Shown here: positions 1 to 30,806 of the stretch, in pieces
Numbering within the stretch: the stretch's first letter is position 1
Layout of the letters: each line of letters starts with the position of its first letter
Source of the DNA: Trichlorobacter lovleyi SZ
Lineage (GTDB): Bacteria > Desulfobacterota > Desulfuromonadia > Geobacterales > Pseudopelobacteraceae
DNA: 32,000 bases
Direction of reading: 5' to 3'
NCBI RefSeq assembly: GCF_000020385.1
Contig: NC_010814.1
Span: 270,001 to 302,000 of the forward strand
Program-made: the position numbers and the translations under genes
Notes under the pieces: generated by a model
Told to the model about the DNA's origin: nothing
The model's database searches: none
The model's input: only the letters and a program-made list of their open reading frames with translations

Positions 1-206
1 GTGAACATGTCGGCATTGTCGGCAGTCTGATTCTTGCTTCGGAGCAGCTCTTTCAAGGCAGGGGCAATATGTGAGGGACATTTTATCTCTTCCCGTTCCC
101 ATCGCCCAATAGTCTTGATAGATACATCAAGCTGCTCTGCAAGAGATTTCTGGGTAAAACGTCCACGGGCCTCTTTTAGTCGAACCAGAGCTTCTGAATA
201 ACTCAT
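1..206 (-). CDS. XRE/Cro-family helix-turn-helix regulator (N-terminal part; gene continues past the left edge)
   Basis: Not in the supplied track because it runs off the edge. ATG at 206-204 reads MSYSEALVRLKEARGRFTQKSLAEQLDVSIKTIGRWEREEIKCPSHIAPALKELLRSKNQTADNADMF... with no stop down to position 1. FTQKSLAEQLDVSIKTIGRWE is a classic XRE-type HTH. AGGGA lies ~9 nt upstream of the ATG. Confidence 0.7.
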   Translation of the reverse strand, partial: MSYSEALVRLKEARGRFTQKSLAEQLDVSIKTIGRWEREEIKCPSHIAPALKELLRSKNQTADNADMF

Positions 207-775
207 ATTGCACATCCCTGGGAATTTTTGTGGACATTATGGCCTACATTATTCCCAGAGTCTAGATAAAATATTGCTTTTTGAGATAAATAATGTTTCA
301 TAATCAAAGGCATTTTAGCCTTACTGTGGGAAAGTTATTATGGATATTGAGGAAAATGTCGAAAGAACAGTCGTACGTGAAAAGTGAAATGCTCCGTTGG
401 CAAAATTTATAATACCATCGTACTGAATTATCGCGTCTTACTGTTTGCAGTGATTTTATTCTGCCAGAACGCAAAGTTTGTTTTCGGCATCTTTGATTTT
501 ATACATCCATCGAGATGGTGCCAAAAACAGCCATGCACGAAAATGACGGTCTTGTATTTTGGAGGTACGATATCGGGTTTTCCGGGGAGGTCTTTGCAGT
601 GTAATCTAAAACCTGCGAAATAAAGAGCAGATCTAAACAGAAGCAGTTCAGGAGTAGTCTCTTATGTCCTAACTTGGCTCGTCATTCGGCTTTTCTGGGC
701 TGAAGGATTTGTTGCATAAAGGTTTATTACTAACTATGGCGGATTTATCGTGACTTAGATGTATGATCCTATAAG

Positions 776-2380
776 TCAATTGCGACGAAGCCATTCAGAT
801 TCGTCCAGACCTACACGAGCAAGATTTGCCGCAAAATTATTAGCAATCCTTTGGGCGTGCGACTCTTTTAGATCGAGAATCCATTTAAATTTTATTTCAT
901 CATTTGGCCCACCGATAAAATAGTAATAATCATCTTCTTTTTGAGCCTGCACAATCCCTGTGTCCTCAAAGGGAGAAAATTCTATGATTTCCAGAGCGTG
1001 ACATTCTTTATAGCAAGTAGATAGAGGGACATAGCCTTGCAATTCATTCTTTACTAACACATCAAAATTCTGGCCATCTTTCTCCATGGGGAGAAATAGA
1101 AATTTTCTATGCGTTCCTGCCGCAATTCGAACACTGTCACATTTCTGTTGAATGCATAGTAGATAATTTTCATTTTTCTTGACCACAACACCGAGGGAGA
1201 GAGATGGGCGTTGCGACGTAGATAAAAAATTTCTTTTATGATGAGTCAATATTGAAAACTCTTCATCGCAATCAGCATTGGTGAAGTTATGAGGTCTAAA
1301 TGATTCGCAGGAATATTTCTTCAAACGGCGGCGCTCAAAGTTTTTAATATCATCTTCACTTAAGATAGCTTTACCTGAGTTGTCTACCTCACTATTTAAA
1401 AGTGCAATATATCCTTTGTTTTGCCATAACACCCTCTTATTGCTGTCAATATTTATTTTATGTTTGTCTGTAGCCTTTATTTCAGTATCTATAAACTCTT
1501 GGGATGATAACCAATCGCAAACTATATTACTGGAAACTTGCTGTGAAATATCTGCATTAGTAAGAATTGCGTTTAGTTGTCCACAAATGGTTTCCTTCAG
1601 AAGTTCTCCTGCATCCTCTGGCCAAGGTAGCATGGCTCGATGTGCAACGAAAGCTGGGTCCAGAGAAGGAGAAAAATCGGCTAATAATTTGTAGGTGTTG
1701 TTTCTAAGCTGTGTTAATGCATTCAAGCACGTATTGCTCAGTAGCCCTGCGGATACTTTTGCATATTCGATTGGTACCTCGTCGAGCAATCCCGAGTAGG
1801 ATTTAAGGCGCGGTTTCATTTCAGGCATGTGCATGAATCTTGGAGCTGCACTTTCTTTTGCCCAAATTGATATCCTGACGCCCCCAAAGGAAAGTGTAAA
1901 AGCATCTAGCGGTTTGAAGCATACAAAAGATTCGCTTAGTTGAGTCATGATTTCATTAAGATTGGTTTCGCCGGTGTAAATAAAAATCAATTTGAGCTGA
2001 TCTACTGGGACATCATTCTCAGCGGTGAGGCTCTTGATTATTTGTATTGCAAAATTGCCTCTGAAATCTGCTACATCATCTTCCTCTTCATTTAAATCTA
2101 CTCCAGTAGATGGGGAAATGTTTTTGATATCAATTCTCCAATCGAGAACAACAACGTCTGCCTTTCTTCCAATACTGACAACCATTGACAAATCATCCTG
2201 ATGTTCAGGTGCAAATGCAGTGGCCATGAGGCCTTTGGACGCAGATTCTCTAATTATTGGATTAACATCGAAGGGATGATCATCTTGCTCTGGGCAGTAG
2301 GCCTTATCATCTACAAAAAGAATGGACTGAATAAAATCTTGTGCGATGACTTCTGACATGGCCATGAATTCTCTACTCAT
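776..2380 (-). CDS. Receiver (REC)-like domain protein with uncharacterised ~340-aa C-terminal domain
   Basis: Track ORF is 776..2428. I prefer the ATG at 2380 (MSREF...): it overlaps the upstream stop as ATGAGTAG and follows GGTGGGGA, whereas 2428 lies 56 nt inside the upstream gene. The N-terminal ~170 aa shows the ordered receiver signature: ILFVDDK (acidic pair), DVVVLDWRI (Asp), LIFIYTGE (Thr), ISIWAKE (Lys). The spacers are longer than in CheY and include an acidic NEEEDDVADF insert. The C-terminal part has no motif I recognise. Confidence 0.7.
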   Translation of the reverse strand: MSREFMAMSEVIAQDFIQSILFVDDKAYCPEQDDHPFDVNPIIRESASKGLMATAFAPEHQDDLSMVVSIGRKADVVVLDWRIDIKNISPSTGVDLNEEEDDVADFRGNFAIQIIKSLTAENDVPVDQLKLIFIYTGETNLNEIMTQLSESFVCFKPLDAFTLSFGGVRISIWAKESAAPRFMHMPEMKPRLKSYSGLLDEVPIEYAKVSAGLLSNTCLNALTQLRNNTYKLLADFSPSLDPAFVAHRAMLPWPEDAGELLKETICGQLNAILTNADISQQVSSNIVCDWLSSQEFIDTEIKATDKHKINIDSNKRVLWQNKGYIALLNSEVDNSGKAILSEDDIKNFERRRLKKYSCESFRPHNFTNADCDEEFSILTHHKRNFLSTSQRPSLSLGVVVKKNENYLLCIQQKCDSVRIAAGTHRKFLFLPMEKDGQNFDVLVKNELQGYVPLSTCYKECHALEIIEFSPFEDTGIVQAQKEDDYYYFIGGPNDEIKFKWILDLKESHAQRIANNFAANLARVGLDESEWLRRN

Positions 2381-5357
2381 CAGAATCCCCACCTTCAAAT
2401 TTTTGTACACAGAATGTAACTGTTGCATTGTCGCGAGGATCAGCTACGAAGACCTCATATCCAATACTTTTAAGGACATCTCTTGTGATGTGTAGCCCCA
2501 TTCCTCTGCCGCGTCCATTTGGTGTCTCTTTTTTCGAATACCCTAACTCAAACACGCGCTCCTTAATAGATTCTTGTATAGGCGGTCCATTGTTGGAAAT
2601 GTAAAATCCCCCATCATCTGCATGTAATCTTATAACTTTATCAATATTATCATCTGTTTGCTTCAGCCAATAAACTGCGTTATCTACAATGTTGACGAAT
2701 ACGGGATATATTTTTGAACGACACGCAAAAATACTACGTAAGTTAAATCCTCTAGTGGCTTTAAGTTCGATATTGTGCCTTCGGAAGCGTTCCTTAAAAA
2801 TATCAAGAATAAAAGCAGATATATCTTTGTAGGGTATATTTTCCTGTTTCCTGTACATCCTTCTGTCAAGAGGTGTGAATAGAGACAAGTAGTTATCGAG
2901 GTGTTCAAAATTAGCGCGTAAATTTTTATATAATGATTCGTATTTTTCGTTTACATCACTTAACATCTTTAGGTCTTTTATGTTTTCTCTAATTGCCTGT
3001 GCGGTGCTGGTAAACTCATGGTGAATTACACCAACCGCAAGGCCTAGCTGACTCAGCTCGATATCAACATTAATTTGGCCTCGAAGTTCTTCCAGCTCGT
3101 TCTCTAGGGCATCATTAATATCTGCTTGGGTAATTATATGCCCGTCTTCGTCTTTGCTCCAATGAATGGCGCTTAGTTGTGACTGGACACTTTCAAGAAT
3201 TTGCTTATGTTGTCGCGCTTCAGCGGTGATCTTTTCTTCAATCTCAAGTCGTTTATTGAATAGCTCGTCATCTCCGAGCTTGGATATGTCGAGTTTTGCA
3301 AATTCAACTTTTATATTCTTCAGTGAGTCAGACAGTGTCACCATTACTTCTCTAGTCAAATCAATAACCTGTCGGTTAACAACTTTAATAACATCGTTGG
3401 TCAGTTTGGATTCAACACCTACTGATTTTTCTACATTGGCTGCGATATCATCGATAGCCTGCTGAAGTCGTACTCGTTTGTTTAGTTCAACCTTATATTC
3501 ATTTTTATAAGTGTCGATCAGGTTAGAAATTGTTTTTTTAGTGCATTGAAAATAATCTACATTAAACCTGCTCCACTCATCCTGATAAGCCTCCCACTCC
3601 TGTCGGAGGTCTTTGCTTAGAACAAAACCCTTTGGATTAGATATTCGATAGCTATCTTCAATACTGGTGACGGTTTTTAAAAGATGTAGTTCAAGATCAA
3701 GCATCTTTCTGGCTAATTCATCGTGATCATTTATTATGCTTAACGCCCGCAGTTCTTCCTCAGCTTTAGCATGTACTGTTTCTAACTCGCTTGGAATATT
3801 TATCTTATTATTGTTAAAGTCATTAAGAGCTTTTTGGAATTTTTGTTTTTTCCCAGATGCTTGACTGTCCCTTTTCTGCTTGGCTTTGAATGCTCGATCA
3901 AACTCCACCTTTTTTGCTGTCCACAATTCAGATTTCGGACCGCCATCTGCGCGGAAAAAGTCATTAGCGAGCTGTAGAAAAAAATTGATTAGAATATCTC
4001 TGAGCTGACGGTAAGCTTTGTTTTCGATAAAGCCTTCACGCCCCGCTTTTTCAGTAAGTCCTGAATTATCTAAATGTTTGATATCTATGTATCCCATCAT
4101 TAGCCGATGAGAGAAAAAATAATACTTTGCGCTTTTTGTTCTTCTTTTTTCTATATCAAGCCAATCGTAGTCACTATCACCATATGGCAATATGCGTATG
4201 CCGTCTCTATAGATGTATAAACCCCCAAGGATGTTCGTCTTTGAATGAAGAGGGCTCCAGTCATCTCGACTTAGTAGAGTGTCTTTTTCTGTTCCCTGAA
4301 GATAATGTACGGTTAAGTTAAATGGACCACAGAGTGTTTTTCTCCCGTTCGCACCATGCCAGAGAATTTCATGTTGATATGTCTCCTCGTTGTAGACTGT
4401 CACCTGCCCGGCAAACTGACCATATTCGTCGAATCTGCCACTGAAATGATGGTCCGCTTGAGCACAGTCATCAGGAGTAAAGAATATTGCTTGATCAATA
4501 AGATTATTGGATTTCGAGAGATCTTGATTTTTATAGTCTCTAAAGGCGGTATTAATCACATGTGGTGCTTCCGCATTCATTGTGTTTGTGAAGCCAAGAA
4601 GCATTTTCTGCATAGTAGAGATGTCGCCGGAATTATAATCCTTATCAAGAGAGCTCGCGAGACTCTCGTCCACAGGGGTGATGTAAAAATGGGTGCCAAT
4701 TGAATTATTGCTTAACAGAAGACCATCAAAGAAACTATCCCATTCTTTAGGATTAATTTTGAATGATTTCAGTTGCTCAAGAACTCTTTGGTAATCAATT
4801 TCATCAATTTTGTCTTCAGCGTTTACGAGGCTTTCAACCACCTCGCCGACTAGCTTTTGAACAAAATCCGAATCCGGGAAGCTGTTGTCTTCAAACTCAT
4901 AGACGGGAATATGAATATCTTCGAGAACTAAACCTGGTAGACCGAATATGTCCCAGTTTATAAATGATACGACAAGAGTCTGTGTCTCATTTTCTCTGAG
5001 AGCTCGTGTTAATATCAACACCTGTGGACCAATAGCAGAAATGGCCAAGCGGCCAATACCTTTTTCCCCCATGATAGGACGTTCAGGCTTGCTGAAAGGA
5101 TTTATTTGTGGTTTCTTTCCATACTTGCTGTCTGTTCCAATTGTAAGCCACTTCGACTCAAATTCAGCACGGGTCATTCCATATCCATTATCACGGATAA
5201 GAAGACAGTTTTTATGCCGAAAGTAATCAACTTCTACTTCGTCGGCATACGCATCGTAAGCATTTTTGAACAATTCACTTGTTGCTGTAGGAATTCCGGC
5301 GATTTGTTGGCGGCCGAGCATCTCCAAGGCACGAGCCGATGTTTTAAAATTAGCCAT
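2373..5357 (-). CDS. Dual GHKL protein: N-terminal MORC/Hsp90/MutL-like ATPase + coiled coil + C-terminal histidine-kinase (DHp+CA) core
   Basis: The track ORF starts at a TTG (5369). The ATG at 5357 (MANFKT...) has GAGG 6 nt upstream and overlaps the methyltransferase stop (ATGGCTAA). N-terminal Bergerat-fold motifs: ELFKNAYDA (ExxxNxxDA), IRDNGYGM (DxGxG), GEKGIGRLA (GxxGxG). Residues ~480-770 are K/E/L-rich and coiled-coil-like. C-terminal motifs: H-box-like LAVGVIHHEFTST (HHE codons at 3015..3023), N-box VFVNIVDNAVYWL, G1-like ISNNGPPI, F-box VFELGYS, G2 GRGRGMGLHI. Confidence 0.88.
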   Translation of the reverse strand: MANFKTSARALEMLGRQQIAGIPTATSELFKNAYDAYADEVEVDYFRHKNCLLIRDNGYGMTRAEFESKWLTIGTDSKYGKKPQINPFSKPERPIMGEKGIGRLAISAIGPQVLILTRALRENETQTLVVSFINWDIFGLPGLVLEDIHIPVYEFEDNSFPDSDFVQKLVGEVVESLVNAEDKIDEIDYQRVLEQLKSFKINPKEWDSFFDGLLLSNNSIGTHFYITPVDESLASSLDKDYNSGDISTMQKMLLGFTNTMNAEAPHVINTAFRDYKNQDLSKSNNLIDQAIFFTPDDCAQADHHFSGRFDEYGQFAGQVTVYNEETYQHEILWHGANGRKTLCGPFNLTVHYLQGTEKDTLLSRDDWSPLHSKTNILGGLYIYRDGIRILPYGDSDYDWLDIEKRRTKSAKYYFFSHRLMMGYIDIKHLDNSGLTEKAGREGFIENKAYRQLRDILINFFLQLANDFFRADGGPKSELWTAKKVEFDRAFKAKQKRDSQASGKKQKFQKALNDFNNNKINIPSELETVHAKAEEELRALSIINDHDELARKMLDLELHLLKTVTSIEDSYRISNPKGFVLSKDLRQEWEAYQDEWSRFNVDYFQCTKKTISNLIDTYKNEYKVELNKRVRLQQAIDDIAANVEKSVGVESKLTNDVIKVVNRQVIDLTREVMVTLSDSLKNIKVEFAKLDISKLGDDELFNKRLEIEEKITAEARQHKQILESVQSQLSAIHWSKDEDGHIITQADINDALENELEELRGQINVDIELSQLGLAVGVIHHEFTSTAQAIRENIKDLKMLSDVNEKYESLYKNLRANFEHLDNYLSLFTPLDRRMYRKQENIPYKDISAFILDIFKERFRRHNIELKATRGFNLRSIFACRSKIYPVFVNIVDNAVYWLKQTDDNIDKVIRLHADDGGFYISNNGPPIQESIKERVFELGYSKKETPNGRGRGMGLHITRDVLKSIGYEVFVADPRDNATVTFCVQKFEGGDSDE

Positions 5358-6477
5358 GAATTGCCTCAATGTGTTTTATGAATTGTTTGCCCATCGCAAA
5401 GGCAAGGTCAACAGGTACAGCATTTCCTATTTGTCTTGCCATAGAATTCAGATTTCCAGTGAACTCAAAGGTATCATCAAATCCCTGAAGTCGCGCCGCT
5501 TCTCTGACGCTTATTGCTCTGTCCTGTACAGGGTGACCGAACCTTCCGTTCGAATAACTGATACACCGTGTTGTTAGGCCTGTCGCCGGTTTTTTCCACC
5601 ATAAGCGTCCATAACAATCAGTATGTCCAGAATGGGTTGTACCGTCTTCATTTGTGCGAGTGTAACACTCTGGCCAGAGTGCCCTCGGCCAGTTATTACG
5701 ACCCCCACCATCATGAGTGGATGCTTTGATTCTTTCTAAGTTGATTTCCGACAACATGGCGGCGCGATGATTCAGTACATTATTTCCAGCATAACTCTCG
5801 CCGGCAGTAATAGCAGGAAGATCAGCTATTGCATCGTATACGGTTTTGTATGGGGTATCAGAGTCTTTCCCATGAGTAGGTTCTGGAATGGATATTTCTC
5901 CGTGCCTGCTCGCCAATAGAACAAAACGCCGACGTAGCTGAGGCGCTCCGTAATCTTGTGCAGCAACTACTCCATAGGCAATTTGGTAATTCAGTTTATG
6001 CAGAAGTTCTTCGAACGCAGGGAATGGACCATGCTTGTGGTTGGGAACTTTTTGCAGTCCGGGGACATTTTCCACAAATACAAAATCCGGCTCGCACTCT
6101 TTTACGATGGTGCCAAAATATGTTAATAGATCTTTACGCTCGTCCTGTTTAGGACTTTCCGTATTTTGCTTGGTGAAAGGCTGGCAGGGAGCACAGCCGC
6201 AGAAAAGTTTGTAACTGTCCTTATACTTGTCAAGCGTATGCTGAAAATCGAGAACGGTAAGTTTTTTAATGCTTTTATCGCAAAAATCTGTAGACGGAAA
6301 ATTTTTGGTAAAGGTGTTCTTTGCATCCTTATCAACGTCAAGTGCAAACGCAATATCCATTCCAGCTTTCTGAAAGCCTCTACTTGTTCCTCCACAACCG
6401 CAGAAGAAGTCGAAAACAGATATGTTTTTTTTATCATGATTTATCATAACTGTCCCATCGCAATGATGTCCATCCAT
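5350..6477 (-). CDS. dcm: DNA (cytosine-5)-methyltransferase
   Basis: All canonical C5-MTase motifs are present in order: I FDFFCGCGGTSRGF (FxGxG), IV GCAPCQPFT (PCQ catalytic Cys), VI FVFVENVPGL (ENV), VIII QLRRRFVLLAS (QxRxR), IX REAARLQGFDD, X GNAVPV. The start could also be the internal Met at 6447 (MINHDKK); neither start has a strong SD. Confidence 0.95.
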   Translation of the reverse strand: MDGHHCDGTVMINHDKKNISVFDFFCGCGGTSRGFQKAGMDIAFALDVDKDAKNTFTKNFPSTDFCDKSIKKLTVLDFQHTLDKYKDSYKLFCGCAPCQPFTKQNTESPKQDERKDLLTYFGTIVKECEPDFVFVENVPGLQKVPNHKHGPFPAFEELLHKLNYQIAYGVVAAQDYGAPQLRRRFVLLASRHGEISIPEPTHGKDSDTPYKTVYDAIADLPAITAGESYAGNNVLNHRAAMLSEINLERIKASTHDGGGRNNWPRALWPECYTRTNEDGTTHSGHTDCYGRLWWKKPATGLTTRCISYSNGRFGHPVQDRAISVREAARLQGFDDTFEFTGNLNSMARQIGNAVPVDLAFAMGKQFIKHIEAIHG

Positions 6478-6520
6478 GGCGCTGCCTTTGATACTTTTAT
6501 TGATGTAAAAAAATCCTCAC

Positions 6521-6549
6521 AATATAAAAAATAGTCAATCAAATAACAA
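6521..6549 (-). promoter_or_regulatory. Candidate sigma70-type promoter for the methyltransferase operon
   Basis: On the minus strand: TTGTTA (6549..6544), a 17-nt spacer, then TATATT (6526..6521), ~45 nt upstream of the ATG at 6477. The region is AT-rich, so chance matches are likely. Confidence 0.25.
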
Positions 6550-6583
6550 AGCCGCCCGTCAGCAAAAAACTGAAGCAGGCGGC
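6541..6583 (-). terminator. Candidate Rho-independent terminator (minus strand) upstream of the methyltransferase operon
   Basis: The minus strand reads GCCGCC-TG-CTTCAG-TTTTTTG-CTGACG-GGCGGC followed by TTTGTTATTTG. That gives two 6-bp stem segments (one mismatch, small internal loop) plus a T-rich tail. It would insulate the cargo operon from read-through coming from the tra side. Confidence 0.35.
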
Positions 6584-6809
6584 AAGATGTATAAATAAAG
6601 TTTTTTGAAGGGCACAGAGCCTACCGCCCACTGCCTTGCCCTTCATAAATGCACTAAAATACCATGTTAATACATCTTTTGGCCACAGCTGTCAATCGAT
6701 ATGCAAATGCAGAACATCCGTTTCGGAATTGACACGCATAACACACCATGTCCGACTAAGACAGGTTGCGCAACGCCTTGTAATAACTGTGTATTGCCAA
6801 TAAAATGAA

Positions 6810-6838
6810 TTGACAGAGAAATTTAAACTGGTCAAAAT
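6810..6838 (+). promoter_or_regulatory. Candidate promoter for the small plus-strand membrane-protein gene
   Basis: Perfect -35 TTGACA (6810..6815), 17-nt spacer, weak -10 CAAAAT (6833..6838). It sits ~50 nt upstream of the GTG at 6890. Confidence 0.3.
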
Positions 6839-6889
6839 ATATACATAATGCTCAGTCGAATTCAGACTGCTCATACAAGGAGGGATGAC

Positions 6890-7225
6890 GTGCCCACAAG
6901 TAAAATGAGAGCAATTATTATTTCTGCTGTCGGAACCGTTATTCCTTGCATTATTGCGGGAGCAATTGTCGGCATATTCTTTAGATCGTCATTCTGGTAC
7001 TGGACACTGGGAATCGCTGTTCTGGCGTTCCTCTATGCTTGCCTGGACCGAATACCCTTACGCCTGTTTACAGGAACAATGAAAGGGTTACCTCTGGGTG
7101 GGTTATTAAGGTATGGCTACGCAAGTACAGACAAAAGACCTGTACCCACTTTCTACGAAATCGAAGACCGAGAACGATTCAACATCTATTCTTACGATCA
7201 TTATTATGGTGATCGTGAAAAGTAA
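6890..7225 (+). CDS. Small membrane protein (2 predicted TM helices), unknown function
   Basis: Track ORF is 6848..7225. The GTG at 6890 follows a strong SD (AAGGAGGGATGAC-GTG), so I start it there (VPTSKMRAIIISAVGTVIPCIIAGAIVGIFF...). It has two hydrophobic segments and a charged C-terminal tail. This is the only convincing plus-strand gene in the window. Confidence 0.55.
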   Translation: MPTSKMRAIIISAVGTVIPCIIAGAIVGIFFRSSFWYWTLGIAVLAFLYACLDRIPLRLFTGTMKGLPLGGLLRYGYASTDKRPVPTFYEIEDRERFNIYSYDHYYGDREK

Positions 7226-7527
7226 TCCCATGCGCCTTTAGCTTTCAGCACTTCATCTCTTCGGAGAGTTATAGATCCCCTATATTCAGGAATTAACTCA
7301 TATGGTGATACGGTGTAGAAATAAATGCTGGTACCCTCAGCATTCTCGAAATGTTCAAGGATGGCTCCCGGAAGAGCAACCTCATTCCCTTTGACTGTTA
7401 ATATAGCGCCGAAATCTTTGAGACTTACTTCTACGTCTGTATCACTCAAAGATTCAGGAACTGTAAAATCATCTTGCATCAAACATATGATGCCATCTGA
7501 AACAGGTATCAAACGTTCGACTATCAT
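7204..7527 (-). CDS. Hypothetical soluble acidic protein, last gene of the tra operon
   Basis: The ATG at 7527 follows GGGGGAGA and lies 3 nt after the traG stop (AGA TAG CCA ATG). 107 aa, no TM segment or signal peptide, no recognisable motif. Confidence 0.6.
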   Translation of the reverse strand: MIVERLIPVSDGIICLMQDDFTVPESLSDTDVEVSLKDFGAILTVKGNEVALPGAILEHFENAEGTSIYFYTVSPYELIPEYRGSITLRRDEVLKAKGAWDYFSRSP

Positions 7528-7530
7528 TGG

Positions 7531-10500
7531 CTATCTCCCCCTTCTAGCAGCTGGTGGCCCACCGGATTTTGGCAAATTGCTTGACTTGCTCTGGTGCTGC
7601 AGAATTTTTGATGTACGTTGGACTTCCTGTTGAACATCTCTGGCTTTATCTGCTTTTACCCTCTCTACAGACCTGACAACTTGGGCTTCTTCACGGACAG
7701 ATTCTTTCGCTGCACGTTCTCTTCTTTCCGCCATCTTTAAGTTTGGCCCTACGACTCCTTCTACATCTCTGACTACTCCCGCCGTCTCATGCAGCGCACC
7801 CTGCCCAACAGCAATCATAGTGGCAGCCGTGCCGGCATCAATTGATCGCCCATCAGTGAATTCCTGGGTAGCTGCACTCCCAGCAAGATTCTGCTTGGAT
7901 TCTACCCTCGTTCCAACCACCTGCGAATTCGAATAATCCGCCTTGACCCCGCCATCGGCACGGACACTCCCGGTAATTCCACCACCAGACCTGGTACTGA
8001 CAACCGCCGCTCCCTGTTGTGACGACTGAACAAACTGATCCTCTGTGATTTCGGAACGCTGCCCGGCAATAAGATTCCCGCTCTTGTCCATTTTGCCCTG
8101 AACCTGGGAGTAGTGCAGGTTGCCATCCTTGTCCTTGGCGTACATAAGGACATTACCATCAAGCCCGTTCGAGAATGAACCGCCGACTACCTCCATATTA
8201 CCGGTTTTCTCATTCTTGGCGTAATACCAGTCCCCATTGACCATCATCTGTTTGCCACCAGCCTGGATCATGTAGCTGCCGGACTTCCGCGAGACATTCA
8301 GGGACTGGTTTTCGTAGCCGGTCTTGATAAAATCACCAACTGTTTTGCGCAGCCCCTTGTCTGTGGTCGATACGTTCCGGTCCAGGCGCTCGATATCAGT
8401 TCCGCTCTTGCTCTGACCAAGATCGAACTTCTGCACCCGACCACCTTGATCAATAGCAAACGACGCGAGATTGCCGTTCCGGTCGTAATCTGCCTTGTAG
8501 TCGAAGGCCTGACCAGACAGTTTGGCGACATGGGCGGCGGCACTTTGGAATCCGGCAGCACGGAGTTGCTTTTGCATTTCAAGAGCCTGCTCCTTGTCTC
8601 CCTTGGCAACGGTACCTGAATTAGACGAATTGACTATCCCGCCATCCATGCCGACATTGACAGCGCTCTTGCCGTCAGATGTCGTGAAGTTGATGTTCTG
8701 CCCCTCCATCGCCTTCTGCACCTCGGCAAAGCCCCGTTCGGTCAGGTGGCCGTTCTGATACATCTCCGGATCGTTCTTGAGTTGCGGAGCAATCTTGCCT
8801 ACCATTTGATCCGCTGCTGCGTGGACCAGCTGATTGCGGGCGATCCTCCCTGAAACATCATTGCTGGTGAGCTGCTGGTAGTTCTCGTAGCCACCCCCTG
8901 CATAAATTCCCTGGATCTTGCCACCGGTTTCCGTTGCCAAAACATGACCAGCTTCTGTACCGGCAGCAACCGGTCCACCCATCTGATTTGAGAGGCCGGT
9001 TACCTCTGAAGCATGCTTGCTCTGTTGGAACTGTGCATTCATCTGCATGAGCTGTCCGGAAGAGATCCCGTATTTATCGGCAATCTTGTTTACCGCATCG
9101 GCATTGGCAAAATCCCCAAGGGCCGTTACCTCAGAACGCATGGCATGGAAATCTCGCCAGTTTCCGCTGAAACCCAATGACCTGGCAGCGGCATAAGCAC
9201 CCATCTCCCCCTGCAATTGTCCGACACTCTTATTCATGTTAGCAGTCAAGAAGTCAGAGTAGTTTTCACCGGAACCAAAGACATTTGCCAAGGCCCGGTC
9301 ATTGGCAACTCCCATCTTGGCAAAGGCGAGAGTGTTGCCACCATAACTGCCTGAAACAACATCCTTGGTTGCAGCAGACTTGTCGAGTCCTAACCGGCCA
9401 TCAAAGGATTTCAGCTCGTAGGCTGATGACAGACCACCTTCCCGCATGGCCCTGCCGCTACCACCGAAACCGATTGATCTGCCAATCTCGCTATCAGCAG
9501 ATATTCTGCTCGAAAAATCCATCCCGAAGTCCCGGATCATATCACTCGACGCAGTAGTCTTAGCCGACATCCCGACCAGCGATTGCGCCTGTCTCGCCTG
9601 GAAGCTGTGCTCGTTGCTCCATGCCTGCGTCGGCATGGCTGTCACGTTACGCTGCATGGCTGATGCTCTGCCGGCTGGATCTTCCACCTCATGTGCCGCC
9701 CGGGTACCTGCTGACTGCACCTGATTGACCATCCCCCCGGCCATCATTGCCATAGCGTGCCCGCCGAACCGAATCAACATCCCGGTAATAACTGTAGCCA
9801 GCATCATCCCACTCATCCGGAGTGTGCCGAACATCCCGAGGATCTTCACCGTTTGATCGGGGAAGAAGTAGAGCGCATCCATGCCGAGCTTGTTCTGCCG
9901 CACCATCTCATAGGCCCGATTGGCATAGTCCACGGCAAATTGGTGAACTATGGCATCAGTGACACCCCAGGCAGTGAGCCAAATGAAGAAGCCAGCGATG
10001 ATGCCCACGGCTTTGCTGATCAGTGGCGTGGGAATGAAGAGCGCAAGGAACGGCAACAAACCAACTGCAATGGCCGTGAGTGCCGCCTTCAGGATCGGCA
10101 GCCATTCGTTGGCTGATTTCATAGCCCCGGAGGCGTTGAGCAGGAACTGATAGTTGGTGGCACCGGATGCGTTGCCACTGCGGAAAATCTCCTCCAGCCT
10201 CTGGGAGACGTAGGCCTGTTTCAGAAAGTCATCAATGCTCGCTGCACCAAGACCAGTTCCAGTATTGACGTTATTCAGAACCGTCTTGCACTGAGTCAGA
10301 GCAGCGGCATCAGTAACATCGTAACCAAGATTGGCGCACACCGATTCAATATTCTTCCCCAAATTGGCCGGGGTAAGCGCTGCCTTGATGTTGGTCCAGG
10401 AGTCAGTACAGGTAAGCGCTTGGCCCTGCGGGTTGGCGGCATTGAAATATACCGTCCAGATGGCCGGGTTGACCGCCTTGTCCAGGGAGCCAACAAAGTT

Positions 10501-29513: not shown

Positions 29514-30806
29514 TCATCCTCGCTCGTGCCGTCTGGCGAGGTCTTTCATGGGGCCTGGTTCCAACCCCTCGAAAACGTATGGATTCAATATCTGATTCCC
29601 CCACAGCAGATTTCGATCAACTTCGCTCAACGATGCATCGTCACAGACATTCGCCCAATTCTGCTCGATGCACTGGATCTGTTTAGCGATAATGTTGACG
29701 GCCTCATCTTCGGTGAGAAGAAATTGCGGAGCGGCAGCAATGCAGGTGGTGATCCGACTTGAACGGTCGTCTCCCATGACCAGCATTGCTTGAGTGGCGA
29801 TCTGCCCATGGCGAGCCTGTGGGCAGATATCGTATGCCGGGGTTAACGTCAGCATCTGTCCGTCCCAGAAAGCTGCATGATTGCGGGCGTGGTCGTCAGT
29901 ATTGCCAACCAGAATATTGAACACGATGCGGGAAAACAGTTCGCGCAATGTTCCGGGAGCATTTCTGAATTTACTCCGGATAATTTCGGCCAATGTTTCA
30001 TAGCTTGCGTAACGGGCCATCATCTCATCCAGAGTCAACATCGTCAGAGCCGAAACAAGGCTATTGCGCTGCCACCCATTGGCCGTTGCCTTCCGATCAA
30101 AACGATCGACAAGCAGCACATCCTTGCCGGCGGCACGTTCCAGAGAGACCGGCGCCACATCAATGCCAGCCATGGCAGCTAGTCTCATTGCGACATACTC
30201 TGCTTTGACGACGGAGTATAGGTCGGTGGAAGTGGAAAATTTCGCTATGAATTTCCGGGAATCACTTTCAATGAGGGCCTTGGGTCGTGCTCCACCGATA
30301 GAGGTTCCATGCTGAAGGGCCTGTGCAAGCTCAGGGGTTAGCGGAATACCCTTCTCGACACGCTCGGTCGCCTCAATCAGTTCTTCAATGGGGGCTCCAG
30401 AGGCATATCGCGGCTCGTACTGCGTAGGCGATAACTGGAAATCAAGGGCGCCTATCCTGTCGGACCCGGACTCAATAAGGTAACTGAGTTCGTCGAGTGC
30501 TGCCGGGTCGATTCCAGACGCTTTATTTCCGAACTTCTTGTTGAGAATTACCCTGCGTCCCCAGGCATCAGGAGCAGCGTCCCGTAAACACCCCGGGATG
30601 GAAAGCCCAGAAAGGAGAGGGAGTAGCCCCTGACGCAGGGGAAGTTCAGCGTCGTAAATCGAAATAGCATTGTCGCGCTGCAGGTAGCTTTTACCGTAGT
30701 TGAAGACATATGTCGTCCCTACGGTCGTAAGCATTCCGGCCACTACCGGATCTGTCTCTCCAGGGAGCCAGATCCAGACATATAATTCTTTGTACTCAGA
30801 ATTCAT
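29514..30806 (-). CDS. hipA: HipA-family serine/threonine kinase toxin
   Basis: 430 aa. The N-terminal HipA coupling domain (LYVWIWLPGETDPVVAGML...) is followed by SIGGARPKALI (P-loop-like) and the catalytic loop LVGNTDDHARNHAAF. Its 5' end overlaps hipB by 11 nt. Confidence 0.93.
   Translation of the reverse strand: MNSEYKELYVWIWLPGETDPVVAGMLTTVGTTYVFNYGKSYLQRDNAISIYDAELPLRQGLLPLLSGLSIPGCLRDAAPDAWGRRVILNKKFGNKASGIDPAALDELSYLIESGSDRIGALDFQLSPTQYEPRYASGAPIEELIEATERVEKGIPLTPELAQALQHGTSIGGARPKALIESDSRKFIAKFSTSTDLYSVVKAEYVAMRLAAMAGIDVAPVSLERAAGKDVLLVDRFDRKATANGWQRNSLVSALTMLTLDEMMARYASYETLAEIIRSKFRNAPGTLRELFSRIVFNILVGNTDDHARNHAAFWDGQMLTLTPAYDICPQARHGQIATQAMLVMGDDRSSRITTCIAAAPQFLLTEDEAVNIIAKQIQCIEQNWANVCDDASLSEVDRNLLWGNQILNPYVFEGLEPGPMKDLARRHERG

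Follow-up and report, generated by a model that had tools for sequence, protein, structure and literature searches.

A mobile operon of Trichlorobacter lovleyi joining a C5 methyltransferase to a dual-GHKL histidine kinase and to a receiver protein: a candidate methylation-gated phosphorelay

What might a DNA methyltransferase be doing in one operon with a histidine kinase plus a receiver protein? The question is raised by a locus in Trichlorobacter lovleyi SZ, at positions 776–6477 of a 32,000-nucleotide stretch of contig NC_010814.1 (positions 270,001 to 302,000; assembly GCF_000020385.1), referred to here as the window. Three genes lie there on the minus strand: a C5 DNA cytosine methyltransferase gene (5350–6477; 375 amino acids), a gene for a dual-GHKL histidine kinase (gene 2, 2373–5357; 994 amino acids from its ATG) and a gene for a Response_reg_2 receiver protein (gene 3, 776–2380; 534 amino acids from its ATG). 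On its Pfam scores, which are 4-fold above cutoff, and on the match between the operon and a published description (PMC8011034), the locus is firmly placed in the HEF_HK / Response_reg_2 ‘two-component-like’ module. The reading favoured here, to which we give a probability of roughly 0.55, is that the trio would form a self-contained and horizontally mobile phosphorelay gated by methylation, similar in purpose to restriction–modification (R-M) systems and serving defence and/or addiction to the element that carries it.

The three genes co-occur obligatorily and are translationally coupled. A preliminary description of the window had reported overlapping stop and start codons, and these can be read directly: the methyltransferase stop lies inside the gene 2 start in the 8-base overlap ATGGCTAA (5350–5357, minus strand), and the gene 2 stop lies inside the gene 3 start in the 8-base overlap ATGAGTAG (2373–2380, minus strand), which is preceded by GGTGGGG. 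The longest open reading frame (ORF) of gene 3 starts at 2428; the ATG at 2380 is favoured by the starts of homologues and by the GGTGGGG Shine-Dalgarno sequence. A species scan with one genome each returned 105 relatives of gene 3, and 80 of the loci were examined. In 78 of the 80, gene 3 has gene 2 immediately upstream of it on its own strand, the two exceptions being loci cut by contig ends. A C5-methyltransferase gene stands immediately upstream of gene 2 in 71 of the 73 loci whose flank is long enough, and close by in the others. The earlier claim that the three genes form one unit is borne out by these counts, and the methyltransferase is coupled to its neighbours as tightly as to a restriction enzyme. 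Mean pairwise identity across phyla is 56% for gene 2, 47% for the methyltransferase and 38% for gene 3, and genes 2 and 3 co-evolve with a Spearman coefficient of 0.87. No further conserved gene, and in particular no nuclease or helicase, was found beside the trio in the 80 loci; any output must therefore reside within the trio.

The loci span Bacteroidota, several classes of Pseudomonadota, Desulfobacterota, Acidobacteriota, Patescibacteria and Cloacimonadota, and extend to the archaea (Methanosarcinales, Methanoperedens and Promethearchaeum). Five archaeal loci (L048, L050, L058, L064 and L076) hold the complete trio, often with a gene for the very-short-patch repair endonuclease Vsr directly downstream, at about 30% identity for gene 3. 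The presence of the complete trio in archaeal genomes indicates transfer between the domains of life. Overall the distribution is patchy and mobile, covering bacteria, archaea and plasmids and, in the present case, a low-GC island on a conjugative element. The low-GC stretch (38–45%) runs from the start of the window to about position 7000, and the remaining window, at 50–57% GC, encodes the F-type conjugation proteins TraG_N, TrbC, TraU, TraN and TraC (Pfam), whose closest plasmid relatives, in Geobacter, Pelobacter and Desulfosarcina, have 50–55% amino acid identity. The trio itself lies in an island of 39–40% GC, against ~53% for the conjugative element. Its low GC content and the conjugation genes in the remaining window mark the trio as foreign cargo of a conjugative element. 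A search for near-identical DNA on plasmids found none.

The first gene encodes a C5-methyltransferase (PF00145 DNA_methylase, E=8e-61, in Pfam; TIGR00675, E=3e-44, in NCBIfam), and its translation carries the motifs FxGxG, PCQ, ENV, QxRxR, RE and GNAVP, with the catalytic Cys98 of PCQ encoded at 6184–6186 (minus strand). Its variable region is only moderately less conserved than the catalytic motifs across related loci, and this fits a target specificity that would be broadly shared among them. Assignment of the locus to Druantia type II was considered and rejected: the DruM profile matches the methyltransferase (E=1e-83) as it would any Dcm-like enzyme, the neighbours are conjugation genes, and there is no DruE-like gene.

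A companion of the methyltransferase had been missed. The preliminary description listed Vsr among the functions that it did not see, and a vsr gene does follow gene 3 directly on its downstream side (437–733, minus strand), in a decayed state and in keeping with the layout published for the family. It has an in-frame stop at 662–664 and has lost its C-terminal third. In a tblastn search for which 39 complete Vsr sequences of the related loci served as queries, the remnant shows 47–56% identity to residues ~4–103 of the ~145-residue protein, and the piece after the stop matches PF03852 (E=6e-18, 64.8 bits). A Vsr gene is found within 42 of the 80 related loci. Here vsr has decayed and the trio is intact, which indicates that the trio is maintained while its repair companion decays.

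Gene 2 is the largest of the three and contains two ATP-binding modules. Conservation of its H-box was measured in 75 orthologues, and the other boxes were scored by a threshold of at least 95%. Pfam recognises HATPase_c_3 (PF13589) at residues 24–133 (55 bits, E=8e-15), HEF_HK (PF19191) at 770–836 (96.4 bits against a gathering cutoff of 24.1) and HATPase_c (PF02518) at 882–984 (55 bits, E=1e-14). The last two make up the kinase core (residues 766–994; 2376–3062, minus strand), which consists of a DHp domain (HEF_HK) and a CA domain with N, G1, F and G2 boxes, and residues 739–980 match the solved Thermotoga sensor kinase ThkA (3a0r; E=4e-7). The putative phospho-accepting histidine, H780, is encoded at 3018–3020 (minus strand); H780 and E781 are present in 75 of 75 orthologues and F782 in 74 of 75, and the box residues N889, D892, N893, G924, F936 and G950–G954 all pass the threshold. 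By its sequence the gene 2 protein is a soluble kinase, belonging to ‘group 1’ of Bellieny-Rabelo 2021. The H-box of the family reads H-E-F-(N/S)-S-T (residues 780–785; window positions 3003–3020). The Thr or Asn that is usual four residues after the His, and is linked to phosphatase activity, is replaced in the gene 2 family by Ser or Gly, a substitution also remarked for PF19191 in a 2026 preprint. Gene 2 may thus encode a kinase without phosphatase activity.

The N-terminal head (residues 1–135; 4953–5357, minus strand) is a MutL/Hsp90/MORC-class ATPase module with the residues E28, N32, D35, D56-G-x-G60 and G97-EKGIGR, of which E28, N32, D35, D56, G58, G60 and G97–R103 are conserved in at least 95% of orthologues. 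It had been called ‘MORC-like’ in the preliminary description. In searches of a profile against the PDB, its ATP-binding core does align with MutL, HtpG, PMS2 and MORC4 (E=0.002 to 0.06), MutL being the closest relative (E=0.0016); the likeness is confined to that core, and the label is a loose one.

Between the head and the kinase core lie two further regions. The middle block (residues 136–480; 3918–4952, minus strand) is highly conserved among orthologues, with D302, H303, G378–G393, D398, E403, R406, E436 and K437...G442 invariant. It has no match in Pfam or among PDB sequences, and similarity to S5 or MORC domains was not detected by sequence. It was considered as a nuclease, and no PD-(D/E)xK, HNH, GIY-YIG or PLD signature was found in it, nor is the block common to the HgiDII-type enzyme discussed below. 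It may be a transducer or the part that senses DNA. The region that follows (residues 481–765; 3063–3917, minus strand) is poorly conserved. Its composition, with 2.8% Pro+Gly against 10–12% elsewhere and 40% charged or polar residues, and the heptad periodicity present in places suggest that it is probably a long helical or coiled-coil connector to the kinase core.

Gene 3 opens with a receiver domain (residues 1–182; 1835–2380, minus strand), which matches Response_reg_2 (PF19192) at residues 16–177 with 106 bits against a cutoff of 27 (E=3e-30, Pfam). The preliminary description had recognised an acidic pair, Asp, Thr and Lys in the right order; in 57 sequences D24, D25, D80 and K175 never vary and T136 is kept in at least 90%, D80 being the predicted phosphoryl acceptor (2141–2143, minus strand). 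When full-length gene 3 is modelled with AlphaFold (pLDDT 85, pTM 0.78), the receiver takes a (beta-alpha)5-like fold, for which Foldseek returns weak CheY/receiver matches (3hdv and 3hzh). The earlier calls of C5-methyltransferase, Bergerat ATPase with kinase core, and receiver domain are thus all upheld by Pfam scores far above the gathering thresholds. The H-box, the N, G1, F and G2 boxes and the phospho-Asp pocket expected of a canonical two-component pair are present in genes 2 and 3 at the level of sequence.

The remainder of gene 3 (residues 183–534 and the stop codon; 776–1834, minus strand) forms the presumed output module. This module was delimited from alignments and from the AlphaFold model, and residues 184–534 modelled alone also reach a pLDDT of 85. 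The model predicts an all-helical subdomain of 190 residues (183–370), followed by a beta-rich subdomain with a long C-terminal helix (371–534). The module is as conserved as the receiver: C409-x4-C414-D415 and R425-x-F-x-F are invariant, and the tail GLDESEWLRR is nearly so. An exhaustive search found 1,374 representative clusters at 50% identity, spread over many bacterial phyla and several archaeal lineages, and among the best 150 of these nearly all have the layout of receiver plus module.

The module matches no known family. No significant Pfam match was found, either with 35 members or in a search at E<=10, and no match among PDB sequences by profile. Foldseek gave no significant fold match against the PDB (whole-protein and domain-only models) or against viral structures (domain model), and neither Pfam nor Foldseek revealed a helix–turn–helix (HTH), a winged helix or any other known output domain. 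The only reasonable superpositions are those of the beta subdomain on the MazF/Kid-type toxins 7bye_F, 5cca, 5co7 and 6l2a, with a TM-score on the target of 0.49–0.58 and a root-mean-square deviation of 4–6 Å; a PemK/MazF Pfam match to gene 3 is absent even at E<=10, and we regard this modelled resemblance as a weak lead and not as a result. Two other candidates were discarded. For a PD-(D/E)xK nuclease, the Lys position in LCIQQKCD varies (K, R, I, L or A) and there is no conserved upstream Asp strand; for a Cys-phosphatase of the CX5R type or a deaminase, the spacing of the motifs does not fit. On balance the output module is more likely to be toxic or to target nucleic acids than to act as a transcription factor.

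More distant relatives show how the output can differ. On a Pantoea plasmid the same trio occurs at about 32% identity, and its 629-residue receiver protein has an unrelated C-terminal part. On the pTet plasmids of Campylobacter jejuni a shorter dual-GHKL kinase is found with a 331-residue partner, which has a canonical receiver and another output, and with a convergent dcm gene. Judged from these sequences, the frame stays constant across branches and the output module varies, a pattern that is consistent with immune effector swapping as in the Detocs system. A two-gene pair on the Campylobacter coli plasmid pSH89 (L083, 3959–7031) consists of Dcm and a GHKL protein of 676 residues; the latter fits the BbrUII/HgiDII model from end to end, with E=5e-100 and a score under the curated cutoff. 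This protein and gene 2 have only residues 4–126 in common (hhalign probability 98%), so the trio and classical HgiDII-type R-M have only the frame of a methyltransferase plus an ATPase head in common. A wider set of dual-GHKL kinases runs from HATPase_c_3 to HATPase_c with no HEF_HK match, and each is followed by a partner without a Pfam domain (L082, 5983–10413; L086, 4727–10173; L085, 4653–8907; L087, 4998–7837; L088, 1–9166). Homology of the partners of these distant kinases to gene 3 is not significant. Their neighbours include dcm (Campylobacter pTet), Vsr plus Dcm (Burkholderia) and a DUF4007/AAA_16/PAPS-reductase set (Methylorubrum), the last of which may be a phosphorothioate-type modification module.

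Taken together, the following sequence of events is proposed. The methyltransferase, whose motifs are intact and which has Vsr as a recurrent companion, would mark host DNA with 5-methylcytosine. The gene 2 protein would act as a soluble sensor in which the ATPase head and the middle block respond to unmarked DNA. The signal would then pass through the roughly 285-residue helical linker to the DHp/CA core and induce autophosphorylation on H780, the residues for this chemistry being conserved. Transfer of the phosphoryl group from H780 to D80 of gene 3 would follow, and the C-terminal module of gene 3 would be released as an effector harmful to the invader or to the cell. The outcome would be defence against unmethylated incoming DNA and post-segregational killing upon loss of the element. 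In agreement with such a scheme, both ATP-binding modules and the receiver keep all their catalytic residues. In essence this is the chain of methylated self, sensor of unmethylated DNA, phosphotransfer and effector that the preliminary description had put forward, and it still appears the most plausible reading; the observation on which it was built is correct and far beyond chance. A more specific version, in which an ATPase clamp of the MutL/MORC class is itself the reader of DNA methylation and signals through a long coiled coil to the histidine kinase, the receiver and an effector of previously unseen fold, is put forward tentatively, as a possibility with the odds against it.

Several points weigh against the proposed phosphorelay. 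The preliminary description saw no recognisable nuclease, helicase or specificity subunit in the trio, and searches by domain, profile and fold agree (Pfam, NCBIfam, PADLOC, PDB profiles and Foldseek); in neither gene 2 nor gene 3 do these searches recognise the fold of a nuclease, a toxin or any other effector. The likeness of the output module to MazF/Kid/CcdB-type toxins is not significant (Foldseek E=0.16 to 1.2). No part able to read a DNA sequence or its methylation state was identified, and some kinases of the distant dual-GHKL group lack a methyltransferase beside them. Genes 2 and 3 are not catalogued in PADLOC-DB 2.0, which offers no model for either, and its sole match in the two is a faint one of REase_II to the ATPase head. 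A search of the literature yielded no experiment on the trio or on another member of its family, and no functional study later than 2021. The sole expression data reported for homologues, up-regulation in Pectobacterium during plant infection (PMC8011034), are neutral.

The alternative that survives best, which we nevertheless consider unlikely, is that the trio is a regulatory two-component system without a killing effector: gene 2 would sense an intracellular cue such as a nucleotide level, and phosphorylated gene 3 would bind DNA and control the methyltransferase or neighbouring R-M genes. The majority of response regulators are transcription factors, the fold searches turned up neither a toxin nor a nuclease, and the 190-residue all-helical subdomain predicted for gene 3 could bind DNA; yet Pfam and Foldseek detect no HTH, winged helix or other known output domain, and unrelated modules replace the output in other branches. 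An R-M-linked regulatory role was proposed by the authors of 2021, and induction in planta of the Pectobacterium homologues would agree with it (PMC8011034). However, apart from the trio’s own methyltransferase no conserved target of regulation stands beside it, and spread on mobile elements between phyla and domains of life would be unusual for a regulator of host physiology.

Less probable again is that the trio is a Type II-like restriction enzyme, in which the middle block of gene 2 cuts unmethylated DNA, in the manner of the GHKL enzymes of the BbrUII/HgiDII family, while the kinase core and gene 3 tune or delay the cut. The gene 2 N-terminus matches the BbrUII/HgiDII model (NF050001) with E=1.5e-20, and the pair on pSH89 is a two-gene relative made of Dcm and a GHKL enzyme. 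The match, however, covers only residues 7–124, ends with the ATP-binding core at residue ~126 and scores 73 bits against a curated cutoff of 550, so that gene 2 was not assigned to this enzyme family. Among the unexplained parts of the system the middle block shows the highest conservation, including acidic and His positions that do not vary, but it carries none of the nuclease signatures named above and matches nothing in Pfam or the PDB. The co-evolution of genes 2 and 3 (0.87) also argues that gene 3 is central and not accessory. A functional R-M system has a recognisable endonuclease that its cognate methylation blocks; here the searches gave no nuclease, by family or by fold, in either gene 2 or gene 3 or in any conserved neighbour.

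That the trio is an accessory of repair or epigenetic maintenance, with a MutL-class ATPase acting beside Dcm and Vsr in very-short-patch repair or in maintenance of methylation and the relay reporting damage, is very improbable: MutL is the closest relative of the head and stimulates Vsr in E. coli, and Vsr occurs at 42 of the 80 loci, with an HhH-GPD glycosylase in its place in the related metagenome contig L084, but about half of the loci lack Vsr, which here is a pseudogene beside an intact trio, any m5C methyltransferase would fully account for its presence, only the ATP-binding core is related to MutL, and mobility and patchiness fit conflict systems better.

The setting of the trio in the window adds some observations. 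Contig L084 (positions 1–9906), from the metagenome SRR22387921 in Logan, carries the same conjugative element and trio with about 95% identity to window positions 552–10480. The likeness stops within the vsr remnant; further on, the HhH-GPD glycosylase gene occupies the place of vsr, and beyond it lie a second Dcm and then an Eco57I/N6_Mtase-type gene, that is, a second R-M-like cluster. Because of this second Dcm and the Eco57I/N6_Mtase-type gene, the site downstream of traG looks like a hotspot for cargo or defence genes. The sole stretch that does not align with L084 is window 7142–7777, which spans the C-terminus of TraG and the small ORFs 6848–7225 (plus strand) and 7204–7527 (minus strand), neither of which has a Pfam match; the divergence may reflect a swapped entry-exclusion specificity. 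At the start of the window a small XRE/HTH_3-like HTH ORF (3–215, minus strand) runs off the end and scores 22.8 bits against a Pfam cutoff of 23. On the same element a HipA-like toxin kinase is encoded at 29514–30806 (minus strand; HipA_C, E=8e-49, and Couple_hipA), which presumably belongs to a HipBA toxin–antitoxin module. Scans for promoters and terminators gave no more than chance would (17 promoter-like sites, where 18.7 were expected), and no such signals are claimed.

The interest of the locus lies in a widespread operon that is tied to a methyltransferase like a restriction enzyme and has no recognisable nuclease. It is an attractive candidate. Residues 136–480 of gene 2 and 183–534 of gene 3 are large conserved orphan blocks and good targets for work on structure and function. 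Should the tentative version with direct reading of methylation prove true, the trio would be the first two-component system with an epigenetic DNA mark as its input, the first restriction-like immune system to place a phosphorelay between recognition and execution, and a bacterial model for signalling by MORC-type ATPases.

How the trio compares with known systems begins with its own family. The preliminary description put it forward as a candidate novel system; the operon type and both Pfam families had been published in 2021, so that in substance the system had already been named. Bellieny-Rabelo, Pretorius and Moleleki started from three co-induced Pectobacterium genes and defined HEF_HK (PF19191) and Response_reg_2 (PF19192) from this type of operon, finding the two genes linked in 91.6% of 644 regions from 628 strains, with C5-methyltransferase genes usually upstream, Vsr genes downstream and R-M domains enriched nearby (PMC8011034). 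The commonest architecture was HATPase_c_3 + HEF_HK + HATPase_c, and the authors, in purely computational work, proposed a paraMORC origin and a regulatory role tied to R-M; their paper is silent on the C-terminal part of the receiver protein (PMC8011034). The present locus has the same three genes in the same order, a soluble kinase, the same conserved His, Asp, Thr and Lys and, as is often the case in the family, an adjacent Vsr gene, here decayed. Nothing essential separates the locus from the published type. The prototypes of the paper are from Enterobacterales, and the one enterobacterial relative examined (Pantoea, 629 residues) differs from the 534-residue protein in its C-terminal module. 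What is added here is the tightness of the methyltransferase linkage over 80 loci including archaea, the absence of a recognisable nuclease, the anatomy of the output module and its lack of known relatives, its variability between branches, and the limited relation to HgiDII-type enzymes.

Three further systems have parts of this frame. The BbrUII/HgiDII family resembles the trio in having a C5-methyltransferase gene just upstream of a protein that opens with the same HATPase_c_3 head, and differs in being a two-gene system with an enzyme of ~660 residues that has no kinase core and no receiver partner. Pgl, or BREX type 2, likewise brings a DNA methyltransferase and protein phosphorylation together in one defence operon (PglW kinase, PglX methyltransferase and PglZ phosphatase); its components are a Ser/Thr kinase, a protein of the alkaline-phosphatase family and an N6-adenine methyltransferase, with no His-Asp relay. 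Prokaryotic MORC and paraMORC proteins have an N-terminal GHKL ATPase and occur in operons with cytosine methyltransferases and Vsr (PMC2292703), and in the GHKL-Shedu nuclease VcSduA the GHKL head is proposed to control a C-terminal effector, an ATPase mutant losing defence (PMC12137116). Unlike gene 2, these proteins are paired or fused with nucleases, helicases or TIR domains (PMC2292703, PMC12137116); no histidine-kinase core or receiver partner is described for any of them, and the word ‘receiver’ is not in the text of PMC2292703. A system with HATPase and REC domains has also been predicted, and not validated, by DefensePredictor (PMC13092281), the text of which is insufficient to equate it with the trio.

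The closest precedent in wiring is Detocs (DtcA/DtcB/DtcC). The preliminary description knew of no characterised defence system wired in this way; Detocs is one that has been validated, though without a methyltransferase or a GHKL sensor. Its signal runs from a kinase His to a receiver Asp and on to an effector, mutants of the His or Asp abolish defence, and its effectors are swappable (10.1101/2023.01.24.525353). The likeness is that of a cytoplasmic His-Asp relay to an effector carried on the receiver, which is non-transcriptional in Detocs and is proposed for the trio from its sequence. No sequence relation between the two was detected with PADLOC profiles, and they differ in their parts: in Detocs the sensor is of the TPR type, DtcB serves as a stand-alone ‘buffer’ receiver, the effector is a PNP ATP-nucleosidase and a methyltransferase is lacking, whereas the trio has a GHKL ATPase as putative sensor, no stand-alone receiver gene, no PNP domain, a putative effector that matches no known fold and an obligatory methyltransferase. 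If the trio does serve defence or addiction, it would be, after Detocs, a second and mechanistically distinct example of a two-component system in immunity, one in which a methylation mark is coupled to a phosphorelay.

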